Sequence record: MT884012.2 | Reading direction: 5' to 3' (one strand) | DNA: 44,700 nt | DNA from: Escherichia phage vb_EcoS_bov11C2 | Shown: one piece after another, positions 629-39,453 of the stretch | Layout of the letters: every line of letters starts with the position of its first letter | Numbering within the stretch: the first letter of the stretch is position 1 | Translations under genes and position numbers: made by a program | The notes under the pieces: generated by a model | Databases searched by the model: none | Told to the model about the DNA's origin: nothing | What the model saw: the letters and a program-made list of their open reading frames with translations, nothing else

Positions 629-2013
629 TGCGTAACTATGCGGCAGAACACCGCGCACTGGAACGCGCGATCGCAAAGCGTAACCTACCGCCACGCCCGA
701 CACGCGTTGCGCAGGCCGTCCGCCTTTACCAGCCAGATTGCCTTCCGCACCAGGTCGAACTGCTGCGTGACACGAAGACTAAAATCCTCGGCCTGTGTTC
801 CGGCTTCGGTGGTGGGAAGTCATGGGTCGCAGCCCGTAAGGTAATCCAGCTTTTAACACTGAACCCTGGTCATGATGGCATCGTAACAGAACCGACTATT
901 CCACTCCTGGTTAAAATCATGTACCCGGAATTGGAAAAGGCATTCGACGAGGCGGGCTTCAGGTGGAAGTTCAATAAGCAGGACAAGATCTATAACGTGC
1001 TTGTGAAAGGCAAATGGACCCGCGTTATTTGCGAGTCAATGGAGAACTACACACGTCTTATCGGTGTTAACGCCGCGTGGATTGTTGCCGACGAGTTCGA
1101 CACCACGAAGCAAGACGTTGCAATGGCGGCGTATCACAAATTGCTCGGTCGTCTGCGTGCGGGCTTGGTACGCCAGTTCGTCATCGTGTCCACCCCGGAA
1201 GGCTACCGGGCGATGTACCAGATTTTCGAAGTGGAGAAGGACAGCCAGAAACGTTTGATCCGGGCGAAGACCACGGACAACCACCATTTACCGGCGGACT
1301 TTATAGACACGCTGCGCAGTCAGTACCCAGCTAACCTGATCGACGCGTACCTGAACGGCCTGTTTGTTAACCTTACGTCGGGCGCGGTGTACAAGATGTT
1401 CAACCGCGAGGAGAACGCCAGCACCGAAGAAGTGCAGCCGGACGACACACTGATTATCGGTATGGACTTTAACGTCACGAAAATGGCGGCGGTTGTGTAT
1501 GTCAGACGGCAGCGCGTCACCGAAAACAAGGAGTTCCGCGACGAGATTCACGCGGTGGATGAATTTGTGGACCTGTTTGACACCCCGGCTATGATTGAGG
1601 CGATCGAGGAGCGCTACCCGGAACATTGTGCCGCCGGTAGGGTCGTCGTTTACCCGGATAGCAGCGGCAAATCCCGCAAGACGGTCAACGCGTCGTCGTC
1701 CGATATCGCACAACTGGAAGACGCTGGCTTCGAGGTGGAGTATGACAGCGTTAACCCGCCTGTGAAAGACCGACTGATCGCGATGAATACGATGATGTGC
1801 AACTCGAAGGGCGTGCGCCAGTATTTTGTCAACCTGGATAAATGCCCTACACTAGCGAAATGTCTGGAACAGCAGGTGTACGACCTGAAGAAAGGCGAAC
1901 CGGATAAAACGGCCGGGGTGGACCACATGAATGATGCAGCGGGCTATCCAATTGCGCACCTGTTCCCAGTGATTCGTCCGATCGCCGTTGTTCCAACTGT
2001 AGACTTCTACTAA
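628..2013 (+). CDS. terminase large subunit
   Basis: Walker A GFGGGKS and Walker B-like WIVADEFD in the N-terminal ATPase, C-terminal nuclease-sized domain, 461 aa, followed by portal. Confidence 0.9.
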   Translation: MRNYAAEHRALERAIAKRNLPPRPTRVAQAVRLYQPDCLPHQVELLRDTKTKILGLCSGFGGGKSWVAARKVIQLLTLNPGHDGIVTEPTIPLLVKIMYPELEKAFDEAGFRWKFNKQDKIYNVLVKGKWTRVICESMENYTRLIGVNAAWIVADEFDTTKQDVAMAAYHKLLGRLRAGLVRQFVIVSTPEGYRAMYQIFEVEKDSQKRLIRAKTTDNHHLPADFIDTLRSQYPANLIDAYLNGLFVNLTSGAVYKMFNREENASTEEVQPDDTLIIGMDFNVTKMAAVVYVRRQRVTENKEFRDEIHAVDEFVDLFDTPAMIEAIEERYPEHCAAGRVVVYPDSSGKSRKTVNASSSDIAQLEDAGFEVEYDSVNPPVKDRLIAMNTMMCNSKGVRQYFVNLDKCPTLAKCLEQQVYDLKKGEPDKTAGVDHMNDAAGYPIAHLFPVIRPIAVVPTVDFY

Positions 2014-32899: not shown

Positions 32900-33682
32900 T
32901 TAACGGCGGCGACGTTTACGTGGCGCTTCGTCTTCGTCGTCGTCCTCATCTTCGTCATCGCGTGGCTTACGACGTTTGCGAGGTTTTTCATCTTCCTCAT
33001 CGTCGTCGTCATCGCGGCGCTTGGATTTCTTGGACTTGCGCGGCTTGTCATCTTCATCATCGTCATCACGACGTTTTGACTTTTTGGACTTGCGCGGTGC
33101 TTCGTCTTCGTCGTCGTTGTCCAGGTCTTCGTCGGAACATGAAGACCCGCCACCTCCGAAGGCTTCGCCGTCTTCACGGAATCGCAGACCCAGCAAGCCA
33201 GCCCCGAGACCCTTGCCGTTGGTATTGTTCCACGCCCAGATATCAAGGGACACGTTGCAATAACAACCGGAGTAGATCTCCTGGCCTTCAATCTCGTCGC
33301 CGTCGATGGTCAGACCTTGTTCGGTCTGCTTCTCGCCGAGTGACGTTTGAATGATAGGCTGTTTGAACGATTTGGCGTTGATATACAACATGCCTTCGAA
33401 TTCTTCGGTCACTTCGTCACGCTCGTCACCGTCGCGGACTGCGCATTCCTTAGAATCCTGGGCGTAGTGGCGGTCCATCCACTTATCGGCATTCTTCTCG
33501 GATTTCAGCTTGTCGGTGAGCACTGCGCGCGCTGCCGCTTCCACTTTGTCCACCTGCGGATCTTCTTTATCCAGAAGAATCACGGCACGGTATGCCGGTT
33601 TTTGTCCATCCTGTTTAGGGGTATCACGTTCCCAGATTTTCAGGAAGCATACGCGCACATTTTTCAGGTTGACTTTAGCCAT
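32900..33682 (-). CDS. ssDNA-binding protein (T7 gp2.5-like / DUF2815-like) with mixed-charge repeat tail
   Basis: ATG 33682 with RBS GAGGAA; N-terminus MAKVNLKNVRVCF typical of this family from memory; C-terminal 90 aa of alternating PRKSKKSKRR and DDDDEDD blocks. Confidence 0.55.
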   Translation of the reverse strand: MAKVNLKNVRVCFLKIWERDTPKQDGQKPAYRAVILLDKEDPQVDKVEAAARAVLTDKLKSEKNADKWMDRHYAQDSKECAVRDGDERDEVTEEFEGMLYINAKSFKQPIIQTSLGEKQTEQGLTIDGDEIEGQEIYSGCYCNVSLDIWAWNNTNGKGLGAGLLGLRFREDGEAFGGGGSSCSDEDLDNDDEDEAPRKSKKSKRRDDDDEDDKPRKSKKSKRRDDDDDEEDEKPRKRRKPRDDEDEDDDEDEAPRKRRRR

Positions 33683-33772
33683 TTTCCAATTCCTCATTTT
33701 CACATGTATCGGGGTTATTGGAAGCCACCCCGTTCGGCTTGGTTGCCAATTTACTTGGTTGCGCCTGAGCGG

Positions 33773-34015
33773 TCAAGCATTTTCATTAAAAAGATTTCTG
33801 GTCACGTAGTTGGTCGCGTTCTCGATCCAGCTTAACGGCGGGCGGTTGATGTTCTTCTCCACCCAATCGACGGCAGCTTCGCTATAGCCGTCATCCAGCC
33901 AGCGGGTCGGATGTCGAATCATCCACGCCACCATTAACACGCCTTGCACGCAATGCAGGATAAAGCCCAGCGCGCCGAGCAAAAACATCAATAAGATTGC
34001 GAATACTTTATTCAT
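33773..34015 (-). CDS. small membrane protein
   Basis: N-terminal TM helix AILLMFLLGALGFIL; 80 aa; overlaps the exonuclease stop. Confidence 0.45.
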   Translation of the reverse strand: MNKVFAILLMFLLGALGFILHCVQGVLMVAWMIRHPTRWLDDGYSEAAVDWVEKNINRPPLSWIENATNYVTRNLFNENA

Positions 34016-35438
34016 TACTTAAGTCCTCGTCGGTAGCTTCAGACCACGCAGGGCGCGGGTCGTCGATTGGTGCTAATACCGGTTTTGCCGGTGCGCGCGT
34101 GATTTTATCACACAACTTCGCCCACACTTTCGGCTTCTCGTCCTTCAATACCTTCTCGGCATCAGTAGGGCTGAGTAATGTTTCTTTGTACATAACATCG
34201 CGCTTGATCCGGGCCTTCGTGAAGATCTCAATCACTTCGCTCTCGTCCGCCCACTTGCGGATTCCTTCCTTACCGGCAACCATCTTGAGGCCCAGCGATT
34301 CGCCATCACCCGCCATTACGGCCTTGAACACCGCGGACTCGATAGCCTTGATGTGCTGGCGCATTGCGTCAAGACCTTCATATGCCTTGCGCAGTTCCGC
34401 CGCGCTCATAGCGCCGGGGGCCGCTTCTTTCTTGCCACGCTTCGCACGTCGTGCCGCTTTGCGGGCTTCGCGGGCCATATTGCGGTCGTGATTGGCGCAT
34501 TCTTCCTCTGTCGCAATACTCACGTCGTCGCCCAGGTCTTCGTCTGTTGCCGTTGGTTGGGTCATCGTGTCGATTGCGGCCTTAGCGCGGGCGCTACACT
34601 GATCCGCAAATCGGCACCACTGGCACGCATCAACGCTCGGTCGGAAGTCGGCACGGGTGAGTCCCTTTTTGCCGCGGGCGTACGCCTCCAGGGCGGCGAT
34701 AGCACGCTTGGACGCAAACTTCGCGAATATCTCCAGGGCTTCTACCGAAATATCCCACTCCGACGCCCCGCCGCAATACGGCTGGAAGATAACCAGGCGC
34801 ACGGTCGTGATGTCGTACATGGATTGCAGCTTGCGCAGCAGGCCGAGCGCATACAGCATAAGCTGTTTGTTTTCTTTCGCCTCGACCTTATGCCGCCCCG
34901 TCTTCAGGTCGCCAACAATCAGCATGTACGTGCCGTCGGTCTTCTTCATGACCATGACCATATCGGCAGTACCGAACGTCTTAACCCGGTTGCCGTCGAT
35001 CTCGAAGCCAGAGTGTAGGACGCGGGTCAGATCGGTGCGCATCTCAAGCTGGACAAACTCCGCCACTTCGAGGAGCGGTCGCCAGTGGTCGACGTATGCG
35101 TCGCACTGTTTCACCATATCGTCGTTGACCAGTACGCCGCCTTTCGGCGCTTTCGGGTGTGCCTTTACCGGTCCCTTTCCTTCGTTCTCGACGTAGCACC
35201 CTTTGTACGTCTTCGCGGTTATCAGCTTCTCACCGGCGATAATGCGGTTTAGCACCACCTCAGATACGGTGTGCATACTCGTACCGTTAATCGCGGCTTG
35301 CCCGGATTCGTTCGGGATATCTTTTTCCACCACCAGGGCGGCTGGGCAACCCATCCATTTTTTAGCTCCGGATGGGCCGAGTAAAGAGTGTTCCGTGTTG
35401 CTACCGGATTGCGTTTTACGTTTTGGTTTAATCGTCAT
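34008..35438 (-). CDS. PD-(D/E)XK exonuclease, Cas4/RecB-like with Fe-S cysteine motif
   Basis: GDLKTGRHKVEAKENKQLMLYALG (D ... E-x-K ... Q..Y) and C-x2-C-x5-C (CQWCRFADQC) plus an N-terminal Cys; 476 aa. Confidence 0.7.
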   Translation of the reverse strand: MTIKPKRKTQSGSNTEHSLLGPSGAKKWMGCPAALVVEKDIPNESGQAAINGTSMHTVSEVVLNRIIAGEKLITAKTYKGCYVENEGKGPVKAHPKAPKGGVLVNDDMVKQCDAYVDHWRPLLEVAEFVQLEMRTDLTRVLHSGFEIDGNRVKTFGTADMVMVMKKTDGTYMLIVGDLKTGRHKVEAKENKQLMLYALGLLRKLQSMYDITTVRLVIFQPYCGGASEWDISVEALEIFAKFASKRAIAALEAYARGKKGLTRADFRPSVDACQWCRFADQCSARAKAAIDTMTQPTATDEDLGDDVSIATEEECANHDRNMAREARKAARRAKRGKKEAAPGAMSAAELRKAYEGLDAMRQHIKAIESAVFKAVMAGDGESLGLKMVAGKEGIRKWADESEVIEIFTKARIKRDVMYKETLLSPTDAEKVLKDEKPKVWAKLCDKITRAPAKPVLAPIDDPRPAWSEATDEDLSNE

Positions 35439-35626: not shown

Positions 35627-35878
35627 TTATTTCGTCTCCCAGCGGTCGATTGTTTTTGCTTCGGATGCAACTGCGAAGCGAACATATTCCAGATTGGAAT
35701 CCGCCCAAATATAAAAGTCGGGGTTAGTAAAGGTGGTGCGCTTAATTTGCGCGGGGGTATTGCGGCGTTTATCTATTACGGCAACGCGTGACTGAAAGCT
35801 GCCGATGCGTTCGAATAGCCAATAGTACGGGCGCTGGTCGCGGGAGTCCACCGCCTCGATTAGCGTGAAGCGTGCCAT
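35627..35878 (-). CDS. hypothetical protein
   Basis: ATG 35878 with RBS GAGGA 8 nt upstream; 83 aa. Confidence 0.45.
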   Translation of the reverse strand: MARFTLIEAVDSRDQRPYYWLFERIGSFQSRVAVIDKRRNTPAQIKRTTFTNPDFYIWADSNLEYVRFAVASEAKTIDRWETK

Positions 35879-35891
35879 TGTCTCGTCCTCT

Positions 35892-35918
35892 AAAAAGAGG
35901 CCCGCAGATTAGCGGGCC
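35892..35918 (-). terminator. intrinsic terminator after first early-left gene
   Basis: Minus strand GGCCCGC-loop-GCGGGCC followed by UCUUUUU; between gene 35927-36445 and gene 35627-35878. Confidence 0.55.
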
Positions 35919-35926
35919 GGAATATA

Positions 35927-36445
35927 TTAATCTTCCAGTTCGAAATAGGTTTCGACGATTTCTTTTAACTCTGTGTGGAAGTCTTCGACGTCGTCATCTT
36001 CCAGCTTGGCGATTGATTTGATCTCGAACGATTCCAGCAGGTCGTCGAATTCGTCGTTCGCGTCGTCGTCATCACCCCCGGCAATAATAGCGGCATACTG
36101 TTTGATCTCGTCGCGCATCTCTGCCAGCGGATCGGCATCTTTCTTACCTTTGCCTTTCGCCGGGGCTTTTTTACCCTTCGCAGGTTTTTCGTCTTCGGCT
36201 TCTTCATCGTCGTCATCTTCTACGACTTCTTTTTTGGACTTACCTTTCGCCGGGGCTTTTTTAGATTTAGCCGGTTTTTCGTCTTCGGCTTCATCGTCGC
36301 CATCTTCGACAACTTCTTTTTTCGCCTTAGACGGCTTCTTGTCTTCCTGTTTACCAACGGCAGCGCCAACGGTTTCATAATGCTTTGCAATGGTTTCCAG
36401 TGCTACTACGCCGCGAGTGATCAGGTTTACGATTTGCTCAAACAT
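35927..36445 (-). CDS. highly charged tandem-repeat protein, first gene of the leftward early operon
   Basis: ATG 36445 with RBS GGAG; two 29-aa tandem repeats (KKEVVEDGDDEAEDEKPAKSKKAPAKGKS) and acidic C-terminus. Confidence 0.5.
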   Translation of the reverse strand: MFEQIVNLITRGVVALETIAKHYETVGAAVGKQEDKKPSKAKKEVVEDGDDEAEDEKPAKSKKAPAKGKSKKEVVEDDDDEEAEDEKPAKGKKAPAKGKGKKDADPLAEMRDEIKQYAAIIAGGDDDDANDEFDDLLESFEIKSIAKLEDDDVEDFHTELKEIVETYFELED

Positions 36446-36641
36446 GGTATATCTCCGATTGGTTAAGTTTAGGTGTCGGCAGTTAACTTCGTCGGTGGCC
36501 TTAACATATTGCCAGGTTACGCGTTCTCCCGTTCGGGTAGTGGACCTGGTTATATAATCACGGTTGGGAATCCTGACACTTCGATCCGGCCCCTGCGTTG
36601 CCCCTCTCCAGTTTGCGTCCTGCATCCTGTCGACGGGGTGA

Positions 36642-36682: not shown

Positions 36683-36742
36683 AAAAAAAAAAGCGCCGAG
36701 GCAAAATGCGACGGCGCTAACCAATAAGAGACAATGAGACGG
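36683..36742 (-). ncRNA. candidate small RNA (orphan promoter plus strong terminator)
   Basis: Minus-strand terminator AGCGCCG-13nt loop-CGGCGCT followed by U10 (36683-36718) with no upstream gene on that strand; TTGAAA-N16-TAATAA promoter at 36749-36776. Confidence 0.25.
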
Positions 36743-36788
36743 GAATTATTATTACACGCGTGCGCGCCCGTTTCAATATCCAAAGGAT

Positions 36789-36848: not shown

Positions 36849-37178
36849 ATGAATGTAAACGACGCAATCGAAATGTTAACGAAGACTGTTTGCAGTGAGA
36901 CAAGCCGGTCATGGGCATACACCGATGCCGTAGGGGCTGTGTTATTTGAAATCGAACGACTGCGCAGTATCGAAAAAGAATTGCGCGCCAGGCTGGAACT
37001 ACTCAACGGTACAGCAGCAAGCAAGCTGCAAAAACACAATGAAGAAATGGAAGAATACAAAAAGCAGGTTATCCGTTTGCGCGCCGAGGGCAAATCCTGG
37101 GCGATGATTGCTGAGTTGACCGGAATTAATCAGAGCACAGTTCGCTCCTGGGTACGCAATAATAAAACTTCTAAGTAA
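36849..37178 (+). CDS. HTH DNA-binding protein, candidate early regulator
   Basis: C-terminal helix-turn-helix SWAMIAELTGINQSTVRSWVRN; first gene of the rightward operon. Confidence 0.55.
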   Translation: MNVNDAIEMLTKTVCSETSRSWAYTDAVGAVLFEIERLRSIEKELRARLELLNGTAASKLQKHNEEMEEYKKQVIRLRAEGKSWAMIAELTGINQSTVRSWVRNNKTSK

Positions 37179-37188
37179 GGCCGCGGCA

Positions 37189-39453
37189 ATGAGCTTAATT
37201 AAATTCGCTGTAACAAAACCCGCTAAAAAAGGCGAAAAAGCCAGGGCGGAAAACTTCCAGATGACGACCGATGAGTTTTTCGAATTTATCAAAGATGCGA
37301 AAGAAATATCCTCGGTGCATATCAACAAGACGGAAGATAAAGCCGAGTATGCGCGCCGCAAGCGTAAGGCCGATGGCATCGTGGCGTATACCAGTGACGG
37401 ATTGCGTCGTAAGACCAGTGCGGTGGACCGCTCGATCCTGTTCTTTGATATTGACCGCACCGACACCCGCACCCTGCGCCGCTGCCGTAAGGCGTTCATC
37501 GACGCGGGTCTGGAACACGTATTTCACACCACCACCGGCGACCGCCACCCGCTGAAGGGCGGCACGCGTTGCGCCCGTTTCCTGGTGCTCACTGACAAGC
37601 CTGTACCGGCTGAAGACCTGGGCCGCGTACAATATGCACTATTACACCAACTGGGTCTGTCAGATGTGGACTTCGACGATTGCACGAAAGACACAAACCG
37701 CCTGATGTACCTGCCACACCAGCAGTCTGTTATTAAGTGCCACTATGGCAAGCGCGCCAATGTGCGTCGTCTACTCCGTCGGGCGGACAAGCTGGGGGTG
37801 GAAAAAGAGGAAGTACGCCGCGAGCTTACCCAGGGCGACGACGCAGTGGCAGACGGCATTCTGGACTGGTGCTTCCAGGCCGGATTCGAGGAGTTATCTT
37901 CTGGTCGTGGTTATGAAGTGCCGTGTCCTAACGAACATCTGCACAGCGGCGAAGGGTCGACGGCTATCATGGTCAAGGATGGTGAGATCCGTTTCAAGTG
38001 TATGCACACTGGCAACGAGTGTTGCTCGGAACTGAACAGACACCAGCACCTGGCGCTACGTCTTATCGGGATCCCGGACCACCTGAACGTCGAACCGCAC
38101 AACATGTCACGTAAGCAAATCGCCGCCATCCTCCCAGGACTGGACGACGAGGAAGTGGAATCATGCTATGCGCATATCGTTGATGCGGTCGGAGACGGCG
38201 ACGAGTACGGCGTATGTACCGACGCTGACCTGGATAACGAACCGGTCGCACTGTTCAGTAAGCACGACCCTATCATCGAGGGGTTGATTAACTTTAAATC
38301 GACCTGGTATATGGCTGGCGAGTCTAACATCGGTAAATCGTTCTACGTGCTGGGCCAAATGGGCGCTGTTGCCGCGGGTATTCCGTTCGGCGGTGCGAAG
38401 GTCGTCCAGTCTCATTGCTTCTATTTCGACGCGGAAGGTGGCGAAGCCTCCAACCAGCGTAAGGAAGCATTGCAGATCAAATATGAGCACGACCTGGACA
38501 AGCTGCACATTATCGATCTGCAATCACGCGGCTGGGATATCACCAGCAAGTCCGGCTTGCGTGAAGTTATCAGCTTCATCAACCGCACCGCTAACGGCGA
38601 ACCGGTTGGCCTGGTGGCGTTCGACTCACTCAACCAGACGGTTGCGTTGCGGTCCGCCGATGCCAAACCGTTCGACGAGAACAACGCCAGCGATATGGGC
38701 GAAGTGGTCAAAGCGCTGAAGGCCATCGCGGAAAATACAGGCGGCAGCGCGGGCGTCATCCACCACCCGGCGAAGGGTGCAAACGGCAGCAGATCTCCCC
38801 GTGGGTCCGGTGCGCTGCATGGTGCTGTCGATTCTGCGTTCTTCCTGGAGCAACCAGACGACAACCAGCCCGGACAACTGAACCTGTATCACGAGAAGGC
38901 ACGTAACGGCATCAAGCAAGCGCCGCGCGGCTTCGTCCTGCTCAAGTGCAAGGTGAAGGTGGATCTCCGCAAGTCCGAGGCGTTCGAGGCACACCAGTCC
39001 ACCAGCACAGGGCCGGACTTCGGCGATGTAGTTGCCGGTTGGGACGTCAAGCCAATTGCATCCACGCCACGCGACGAGACTCTTTACCTCGTACCGGTCG
39101 CCCTGGCACCGTTCGCCATCGAACAGGCGAAGGCCGCGGGCAAGGCCGCAGTTAAGGAGGAGAACGCCGCAGGACCGCGCAACGAAAAAGAGAAAGTGCT
39201 TTATGCGGCACTGGAAAAACTGATGGAAGATAACCCGGACCATACCGGATTCAGTAAATCGGCAATTGTACGCCAGGCGGGATTGGCAAAAGGCGGCACA
39301 TCGACGAAGGCAATCGACGATATGGTCGAGCGCGGCGTGCTCGGTTTTTATACAGATCCGCACACCGGGGCCATCTATGGGTCGTCAAATATCGTCATCA
39401 AAACGAATATACCCATCACGCTTTCGGCGACCGATGACGACCTGAAAGATTAA
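37189..39453 (+). CDS. primase-helicase (AEP-type primase-polymerase N-domain fused to RecA/DnaB-like ATPase)
   Basis: N-terminal hydrophobic DxD motif LFFDIDRTD; central Walker A GESNIGKS and Walker B VGLVAFDSLNQ; 754 aa. Confidence 0.7.
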   Translation: MSLIKFAVTKPAKKGEKARAENFQMTTDEFFEFIKDAKEISSVHINKTEDKAEYARRKRKADGIVAYTSDGLRRKTSAVDRSILFFDIDRTDTRTLRRCRKAFIDAGLEHVFHTTTGDRHPLKGGTRCARFLVLTDKPVPAEDLGRVQYALLHQLGLSDVDFDDCTKDTNRLMYLPHQQSVIKCHYGKRANVRRLLRRADKLGVEKEEVRRELTQGDDAVADGILDWCFQAGFEELSSGRGYEVPCPNEHLHSGEGSTAIMVKDGEIRFKCMHTGNECCSELNRHQHLALRLIGIPDHLNVEPHNMSRKQIAAILPGLDDEEVESCYAHIVDAVGDGDEYGVCTDADLDNEPVALFSKHDPIIEGLINFKSTWYMAGESNIGKSFYVLGQMGAVAAGIPFGGAKVVQSHCFYFDAEGGEASNQRKEALQIKYEHDLDKLHIIDLQSRGWDITSKSGLREVISFINRTANGEPVGLVAFDSLNQTVALRSADAKPFDENNASDMGEVVKALKAIAENTGGSAGVIHHPAKGANGSRSPRGSGALHGAVDSAFFLEQPDDNQPGQLNLYHEKARNGIKQAPRGFVLLKCKVKVDLRKSEAFEAHQSTSTGPDFGDVVAGWDVKPIASTPRDETLYLVPVALAPFAIEQAKAAGKAAVKEENAAGPRNEKEKVLYAALEKLMEDNPDHTGFSKSAIVRQAGLAKGGTSTKAIDDMVERGVLGFYTDPHTGAIYGSSNIVIKTNIPITLSATDDDLKD

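Follow-up and report, generated by a model that had tools for sequence, protein, structure and literature searches.

A widespread acidic protein of tripartite architecture heads the replication module of Dhillonviruses and related phages and is a candidate replication/recombination adaptor

The window analyzed in this study is the whole 44,700-nucleotide (nt) stretch from Escherichia phage vb_EcoS_bov11C2 (sequence record MT884012.2), and our subject is the small gene at 35927..36445 on its minus strand, which encodes a protein of 172 amino acids (aa) followed by a TAA stop codon. Its orthologs are HK578 gp44 and gp46 of Sodalis phage SO-1, and it belongs to PHROG 3127; its product is an uncharacterized yet widespread core member of a common phage replication module. 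Our preferred, though tentative, reading of its sequence pattern and gene order is that the protein may serve as an abundant, non-enzymatic adaptor of the phage's own replication and recombination machinery. The query region is 100% identical, at equal coordinates, to that of the Dhillonvirus vb_EcoS_bov16_1 (MT884013.2, 44,700 base pairs), in whose record the gene is labelled 'hypothetical protein' (QNR53641.1). An earlier note on this DNA had described here a 172-aa open reading frame (ORF) with a tandem repeat and a very acidic C-terminus, and such an ORF is indeed present, with a net charge of -20 over its last 67 aa.

The match to PHROG 3127, a family of unassigned function, covers the entire protein (E = 2e-53; residues 1-172 align with positions 1-178 of a 178-position profile). 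One search returned 166 homologs, an exhaustive profile search of 1.84 billion representatives yielded only 62 clusters at 50% identity, and a tblastn search with a distant member placed the family in at least 438 phage records. These include Dhillonvirus, the Guernseyvirinae of Salmonella and Escherichia, and phages of Edwardsiella, Serratia and Klebsiella, with Jerseyvirus and Kagunavirus among the genera, and every Dhillonvirus that we examined carries the gene. HK578 gp44, SO-1 gp46 and the members of PHROG 3127 are direct orthologs or homologs at the equal genome position, although their records differ in repeat number and frequently have a mis-called start.

The gene is followed on the same strand by an 83-aa gene (35627..35878, minus; orthologous to HK578 gp43), a gene of 62 aa, a DUF2800 exonuclease of the PD-(D/E)XK type (34008..35438), an Enc34/gp2.5-type protein that binds single-stranded DNA (SSB; 32900..33682), PolA and a VRR-NUC nuclease, and on the divergent side lie a small helix-turn-helix (HTH) protein and an AAA_25 helicase-primase (37189..39453). 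In metagenomic phage contigs and in Jerseyvirus S103, homologs of only about 24-40% identity invariably head an operon that continues with small genes, the DUF2800 exonuclease, in some cases the Enc34-type SSB, and PolA, and SNF2 comes next in the distant operons where the contig extends that far. At the distant loci for which the upstream region is present the gene is divergent from the AAA_25 helicase-primase; in Jerseyvirus S103 the helicase is upstream on the same strand. Because this operon-first position is conserved, the gene behaves as a core part of the replication/recombination module and not as a variable accessory. Both of its terminal regions are under purifying selection, with synonymous and nonsynonymous codon differences numbering 387:98 (N-terminal) and 1539:259 (C-terminal).

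The protein (isoelectric point, pI, 4.45) consists of three parts. The first is an N-terminal amphipathic helix (aa 1-25, MFEQIVNLITRGVVALETIAKHYET; 36371..36445, minus; predicted helix 2-25 or 2-29), and this segment carries five of the six nearly invariant columns of a 41-sequence family alignment (L8, R11, A15, E17 and A20). It is followed by a predicted disordered spacer (aa 26-105; 36131..36370, minus; predicted local distance difference test, pLDDT, < 50), which is a blocky polyampholyte: aa 31-105 hold 22 basic and 24 acidic residues with a net charge of about -2, and the mean same-sign charge run of the spacer is 5.75 vs 1.96 +/- 0.28 in shuffles. The third part is an acidic C-terminal domain of three predicted helices (aa 106-172; 35930..36130, minus), in which 25 of the 67 residues (37%) are acidic and which is all-helical in the AlphaFold2 model (helices 106-122, 127-139 and 150-167). 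Over about 65 aa this domain follows the family consensus LRxxIxxxAxxIxxGDxDxxxDxFDDLLxxxxVxxVxKLxDxDVxxFHxxLxxIxxxY; its net charge has a family median of -12, and it is tandemly duplicated in P0121, P0123 and P0135. AlphaFold2 gave a pLDDT of 47 for the full protein and of 67 for a natural 122-aa allele that is free of repeats, with a predicted template modeling score (pTM) of 0.45 and per-block means of 76-87 in the C-terminal bundle of the latter. Searches of Pfam, NCBIfam, PDB sequences and folds gave no informative match and detected neither an enzymatic nor any other known domain, and comparison of 41 diverse family members with Pfam gave low-complexity noise only, to which we also assign the matches to BUD22, CobT, HC2 and TolA.

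The spacer contains a tandem repeat, which the earlier note had given as two units of 29 aa; the repeat is real, and the units measure 29 aa (aa 40-68, KAKKEVVEDGDDEAEDEKPAKSKKAPAKG, also written KAKKEVVEDGDD-EAEDEKPAKSKKAPAKG; 36242..36328, minus) and 30 aa (aa 69-98, KSKKEVVEDDDDEEAEDEKPAKGKKAPAKG; 36152..36241, minus). Tandem Repeats Finder reports a period of about 87-90 nt, 2.0 copies, 85% matches and a score of 257. Among 93 close homolog clusters the number of KKEVVE-type units is zero in 15, one in 41 and two in 37, the linker ranges from 22 to 86 aa, and the laboratory phage HK578 has a single unit. The shortest alleles retain just a basic KKPAKSKKAPAKGKGKK linker, and alleles that lack any acidic block occur on phage-sized contigs of about 44-45 kb (P0083 and P0092). 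The linker has the highest nucleotide diversity of the locus (0.154, vs 0.05-0.08 in the flanking coding parts). In 41 representatives of the family the linkers are 32-98 aa long and unalignable, with a median charged fraction of 0.44 and a net charge of about -1; patches rich in Lys and Arg alternate with acidic ones, so that composition is kept and sequence is not. The 29/30-aa repeat is thus a natural copy-number polymorphism of a length-variable charged spacer.

A clue to the role of this spacer could be its likeness to the 86-aa C-terminal tail of the gp2.5/Enc34-type SSB encoded in the same operon (32903..33160, minus). The SSB tail (...SDEDLDNDDEDEAPRKSKKSKRRDDDDEDDKPRKSKKSKRRDDDDDEEDEKPRKRRKPRDDEDEDDDEDEAPRKRRRR) finishes in RKRRRR, unlike the usual purely acidic tail, and both segments follow the pattern of an acidic block, (K/A)P(R/A)K and a basic block. 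Their local alignment scores 115 vs 67 +/- 8 in composition-preserving shuffles (maximum 95; 0/1000 reach the observed value), and the score at the DNA level is 24 vs 13 +/- 2 (0/300 shuffles). The mean same-sign charge run of the SSB tail is 8.0, compared with about 2.0 +/- 0.27 in shuffles. The blocky pattern is found in both proteins of three distant lineages (L002, L009 and S103), and in two outgroups examined it is found in neither protein and the SSB tails are purely acidic. Among Dhillonviruses both segments change length by whole units, and their lengths are correlated (Spearman 0.64, n = 11, uncorrected for phylogeny). In addition, only five copies of the motif [STA]D[DE]D[LVI] are present among all ORFs of 60 aa or more, and four of these lie in replication proteins: at the C-terminus of the helicase-primase, within the exonuclease and again at its C-terminus, and at the start of the SSB tail. 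Written as [S/T]D[E/D]DL, the motif is carried by tails or linkers of the SSB, the helicase-primase and, twice, the exonuclease, with a single further copy in the genome. The shared charge pattern and the motif suggest a network of electrostatic contacts among the proteins of the module.

In having a charged disordered segment beside replication proteins, the protein resembles the T7 gp2.5 and E. coli SSB tails, which act as replisome hubs. It differs from SSBs in lacking an OB fold and in that its disordered segment is internal, between two helical modules, and unlike in those tails its acidic and basic blocks alternate, the charge not being purely acidic.

Acting as an adaptor, the protein would be present in stoichiometric excess over the products of the downstream genes, its N-terminal helix and acidic bundle would be two binding modules, and the spacer would be an electrostatic tether whose charge pattern is kept while its sequence and length are not. 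The SSB would be the most likely partner, because the charge pattern of the spacer is common to the SSB tail. The acidic bundle could sit on the DNA-binding surface of the partner, in a chaperone or DNA-decoy action, or alternatively it could help to concentrate the machinery on phage DNA. Several points weigh against such a role. All of the proposed interactions are read from sequence pattern and gene order, and the structure models are only moderately confident (pLDDT 67, pTM 0.45) and are monomer predictions only. In the remotest members the C-terminal domain is nearly neutral, at about -1 to -3, and L018 is a clear exception to the correlation between spacer and SSB-tail length. The similarity of the two segments could also have arisen via slippage in GA-rich DNA or gene conversion and not through function. 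Finally, by analogy, RecBCD inhibitors such as lambda Gam and T7 gp5.9 typically occupy a comparable operon-first site, next to an exonuclease and an annealing protein.

The stoichiometric excess proposed above would follow from the transcriptional layout of the locus. The promoter TTGACA-N18-TATTAT that the earlier note had named (P1; 36671..36642, minus, with a run of ten T residues just upstream) is present and is the best sigma-70 match, being the sole 11/12 match to the consensus in the genome, where 10/12 is reached by three sites only. An 11/12 site is present in 27% of shuffled genomes, so the hexamer match by itself is not significant; P1 is credible because of its location in a 403-nt divergent intergenic region, its orientation toward the gene and its conservation across Dhillonviruses. 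It is kept in 17 Dhillonvirus sequences, with TATTAT, TAATAT and TATCAT as variants of the -10 element, and the HK578 record annotates a promoter at the equivalent site. The gene had been placed immediately downstream of this promoter; it is the first cistron behind P1, but a 5' leader of about 190 nt (36446..36635, minus; start site predicted) separates the -10 element from the ATG. A Shine-Dalgarno sequence, GGAG, lies 7 nt 5' of the ATG (36453..36456, minus) and is kept in the Dhillonvirus alignment, and alignments show that the start Met is common to all homologs, distant ones included.

At its other end the gene is followed by an intrinsic terminator, which was also correctly placed in the earlier note (35892..35918, minus; hairpin 35918..35899). 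Its sequence, GGCCCGC-TAATCT-GCGGGCC followed by TCTTTTT, provides seven G-C pairs, a 6-nt loop and a UCUUUUU tract, as expected of a Rho-independent terminator. The predicted folding energy is -18.2 kcal/mol (z = -3.46; 1/200 shuffles equally stable), and the stem is invariant in 16/16 Dhillonvirus sequences compared. The record of WF5505 annotates a terminator here and that of PTXU06 lists one under the matched stretch. The terminator stands in a gap of 48 nt and is followed, after 12 nt, by the ribosome-binding site of the next gene. A scan of the gap before the next gene found no promoter-like site behind the terminator, and therefore at least gp43, gp42 and the exonuclease would be expressed by read-through. 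The next promoter-like site is at 33776..33748, immediately 5' of the SSB gene, and fits a report that places Retron-Eco8 escapers of SECphi4/6/18 in the SSB coding sequence 'or promoter'.

Terminators of non-homologous sequence also lie behind the gene in L010 (a G+C-rich stem of 9 base pairs and T6) and in Jerseyvirus S103, and none was found after the gene in L002, L009 and L011. That a terminator recurs at the same position with unrelated sequences supports selection for more of this protein than of its neighbors. It had been proposed that the gene is transcribed in excess of the rest of the operon, and the layout, with its 48-nt gap, conserved stem and recurrent terminators, supports this: it is reasonable to infer from the sequence that the first cistron is expressed more highly than the genes after it, and the gene is probably the most highly expressed of its operon. 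Our literature searches found neither a Dhillonvirus transcriptome nor a source that measured 'early' timing.

Two variations at the terminator were observed. Across the hairpin of the window (35899..35918) and the equivalent sites in L005, L016, L017, L015 and L018 the loop is TAATCT, its exact reverse complement AGATTA, or ATATTA, with the stem constant; since the loop can be an exact reverse complement while the stem is constant, the hairpin has been flipped in some lineages. Separately, by alignment, about 134 nt are inserted between the stop codon and the terminator in L004 (Zar3M; 1733..1846), L015 and L018, which corresponds to a point at about 35930 of the window. The insert holds an ORF of 37 aa (MDYEMRIMLDFIAENWAAFTAFCEERGDDPDEVYRQLGGED), is flanked by the duplicated last codons and stop, GAAGA(T/C)TAATAT, and looks like a moron sited so as to share the high expression upstream of the terminator.

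The earlier note had suggested that an abundant acidic protein of this kind could be a DNA mimic or an anti-restriction protein. As a host-directed DNA mimic, the abundant acidic bundle would block RecBCD, as do Gam and gp5.9, or a type I restriction enzyme, as do Ocr and ArdA, and the incoming linear genome would thereby be protected. We consider this unlikely. The strongly acidic, all-helical C-terminal domain (25 of 67 residues) and the position as first gene behind the best promoter of the genome both fit it, and like T7 Ocr (gp0.3), T7 gp5.9 and lambda Gam the protein is small, acidic, helical, non-enzymatic and first or early in its operon. The genes gam and 5.9 adjoin exonuclease and annealing genes, and the gene studied here, lying shortly 5' of the exonuclease and SSB/annealing genes, is by analogy in a similar position. 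It differs from Ocr, gp5.9 and Gam in its tripartite build, with a long disordered spacer and a putative N-terminal docking helix, and in being a core syntenic gene of the replication module and not a variable accessory. Moreover, no Ocr, ArdA or Gam model matched the protein at E <= 1 or the 41 family members at E <= 0.1, and no fold or sequence similarity to the known RecBCD inhibitors lambda Gam, T7 gp5.9 and P22 Abc2 was found.

Work on phage defense bears on both branches of this proposal. The P2 OLD system fires upon RecBCD inhibition, and Dhillonviruses are OLD-sensitive (bioRxiv 10.64898/2026.07.10.737580, a preprint); Dhillonviruses therefore probably encode some RecBCD inhibitor, which speaks for a mimic of this type. 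The OLD escaper reported in the same preprint, however, is a single-base deletion (frameshift) in the neighboring gp43 of HK578 and not in gp44. A further OLD escaper has lost part of the promoter region of gp45-gp46, and our gene has its promoters in that same divergent intergenic region. In the literature we found no published test of the protein for RecBCD inhibition or for triggering of OLD or retron Ec48. With regard to restriction, Dhillonviruses are described as comparatively sensitive to type I and type II restriction-modification (BASEL, PMC8594841), and HK578 already has a Lar-like restriction-alleviation gene, both of which argue against an anti-restriction function. An Ocr-like anti-restriction role is possible, though it is not the best-supported reading.

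A further alternative is that the protein is a self-assembling hub or condensate scaffold similar to PopZ of Caulobacter, in which the protein would oligomerize through its C-terminal helices and recruit clients by its N-terminal helix, and the blocky spacer, jointly with the SSB tail, would bring about coacervation to form a replication focus. PopZ combines an N-terminal helix, an acidic disordered region of about 80 aa and three C-terminal helices in about 177 aa; our protein is alike in architecture and size, at about 175 aa with a pI of about 4, and likewise places a linker of about 80 disordered residues between its N-terminal helix and three helices at the C-terminus. The extreme charge blockiness of the spacer and the SSB tail, a layout that would favor abundance, and the duplicability of the C-terminal domain, which would give multivalency, are also consistent with a scaffold. 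The PopZ linker differs in being acidic and Pro-rich, the linker here being a blocky polyampholyte. No homology to PopZ was detected (hhalign probability 0.2% against a PopZ sequence, over only 13 columns of the N-terminal helix) and no Pfam match was obtained, and the natural alleles from which all acidic blocks are missing (P0083 and P0092) argue against condensation. We find a PopZ-like hub in general improbable, and the same holds for its specific form, in which the scaffold would co-condense with the SSB tail and the [S/T]D[E/D]DL-bearing exonuclease and helicase-primase into a membrane-less replication/recombination compartment.

The order of promoter, long conserved leader, small first gene, intrinsic terminator and recombination genes also recalls the pL-nutL-N-tL1 region of lambda. 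By that analogy the protein would be an antiterminator similar to N, with modified RNA polymerase reading through the gene's own terminator and so turning on the delayed-early replication genes. The absence of a promoter-like site directly behind the terminator, the presence of patches rich in Lys and Arg in all linkers and the KRGRPAK sequence in one clade would agree with this. However, the protein is overall acidic (pI 4.45), unlike N proteins, and its basic patches lack sequence conservation; in three lineages the gene has no terminator behind it; and the 136-nt element of the leader is unstructured and is missing in 3/17 phages, so that this part of the leader is naturally dispensable. 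Neither the arginine-rich motif nor the conserved leader nut hairpin of lambda N was found, nor was a conserved boxB-like hairpin, and we judge antitermination to be very unlikely.

Equally hard to sustain is an H1-like (or HMGA-like) binder of DNA or of the nucleoid that would remodel host or phage DNA through its Lys/Ala/Pro blocks, a reading that takes up the nucleoid-targeting role suggested in the earlier note, since the blocks of KKAPAKGK type, the shortest alleles with their solely basic linker and the AT-hook-like KRGRPAK of one clade are set against repeat copies that vary from zero to two among near-identical phages and are missing in 15/93 close clusters, a linker that is near charge-neutral (about -2 here, family median -1), conserved parts that are the neutral N-terminal helix and the acidic bundle and not the basic blocks, and a match of Pfam HC2 to only 1/41 members (E = 0.01).

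Many of the phages that carry the gene, of which at least 438 are sequenced, are candidates for phage therapy. If the protein is an adaptor that brings order to the SSB, the exonuclease and the helicase-primase, then a very common module, that of DUF2800, DUF2815 and PolA, would gain a new replisome component, and the protein would offer a tractable natural disordered region in which the charge pattern is conserved and the sequence is not. If instead it is a DNA mimic, it would represent a new fold class of early anti-host protein.

Outgroup phages that share the replication module have operon-heading analogues of the same architecture, as in Lavrentievavirus SD-11_S17 and E21 and possibly in BcepC6B (gp41): a helix at the N-terminus is followed by a K/E-rich spacer whose repeat number varies and by a helical C-terminal domain that closes with an acidic end. 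Homology to them, as judged from sequence profiles, is suggestive and was not established (hhalign probability 26%; E = 0.01 and 0.09).

Literature searches by PHROG identifier and locus tags found no paper on this gene, and the main texts of the Dhillonvirus studies on OLD, KpAvs2, anti-Tmn, RAZR and the 19-system screen do not discuss it as an escaper or a trigger. We considered and rejected its identity with several proteins named in such work: anti-Tmn is ORF35 of SMS22, with a beta-sheet C-terminus; Ksap1, of 74 aa, has its gene elsewhere; RAZR is triggered by the portal protein; OLD escape involves gp43, gp46 and the gp45 promoter; and the main text of the 19-system screen names the SECphi4 SSB, the polymerase and a 56-aa protein.

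Public annotation of the gene is uneven, as the records NC_013600 (SO-1 gp46), NC_019419 (JL1 gp18), MZ501095 (bas18_0048) and PQ658967 illustrate. The start is often called 180 nt upstream, giving proteins of 202-240 aa. One record carries the product label 'prohead core protein' and records of Jerseyvirus and Kagunavirus carry '13.88 kDa late protein'; our sequence analysis gave no support for either. The latter is a legacy label taken over from Salmonella phage MB78.

The mis-called starts are connected with an indel element of 136 nt within the leader (36479..36614, minus). It is present in 14/17 Dhillonvirus sequences and nearly invariant where carried, and its absence from the other three (WF5505, L017 and L021) is clean. 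The element opens an ORF upstream of the gene and in frame with it, which several records wrongly present as an extension of the N-terminus. We rejected the resulting ORF of 232 aa: it has no Shine-Dalgarno sequence, its ATG is only about 10 nt from the predicted transcription start, it needs an element that is missing from three of 17 phages, and the distant homologs all begin at the downstream Met.

The leader as a whole has a low nucleotide diversity (0.044), similar to that of the N-terminal coding region. No Rfam family matches it, and its folding is no more stable than that of shuffles (z +0.83); the 136-nt element likewise has no Rfam match and is less stable than shuffles (z +2.27). 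In SO-1 two CCWGG sites of the element are altered together (CCAGG to CCCGG and CCTGG to CCGGG), which could be a compensatory change or could have abolished two Dcm/EcoRII sites. We rejected a structured leader RNA, since there is no Rfam match, folding is at or below that of shuffles, and this lone 'compensatory' pair equally removes CCWGG sites.

Upstream of P1 lies another promoter-like site that points leftward (TTGAAA-17-AATAAT, 36776..36748, minus, with a TG ahead of it), followed by a hairpin, AGCGCCG-13 nt-CGGCGCT with a run of ten T residues (about 36717..36683, minus), which ends exactly at the -35 element of P1. The stretch 36683..36776 is the best conserved of the locus (diversity 0.022; hairpin z = -3.07), and its candidate identities are a small RNA of about 59 nt, an insulating terminator and an UP-like T tract. 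The idea that the 5' part of such a small RNA pairs with the ribosome-binding site of the gene was rejected, the pairing being no better than in shuffles (178/1000 equal or better).

On the other side of the intergenic region, the divergent 109-aa gene (36849..37178, plus) is labelled 'putative resolvase / transposase' but encodes no more than a small HTH protein. It matches HTH_23, HTH_28 and a sigma-70 region 4-like model (E about 1e-6 to 1e-7), and a regulator of transcription in the early region is a likelier identity than a resolvase or transposase.

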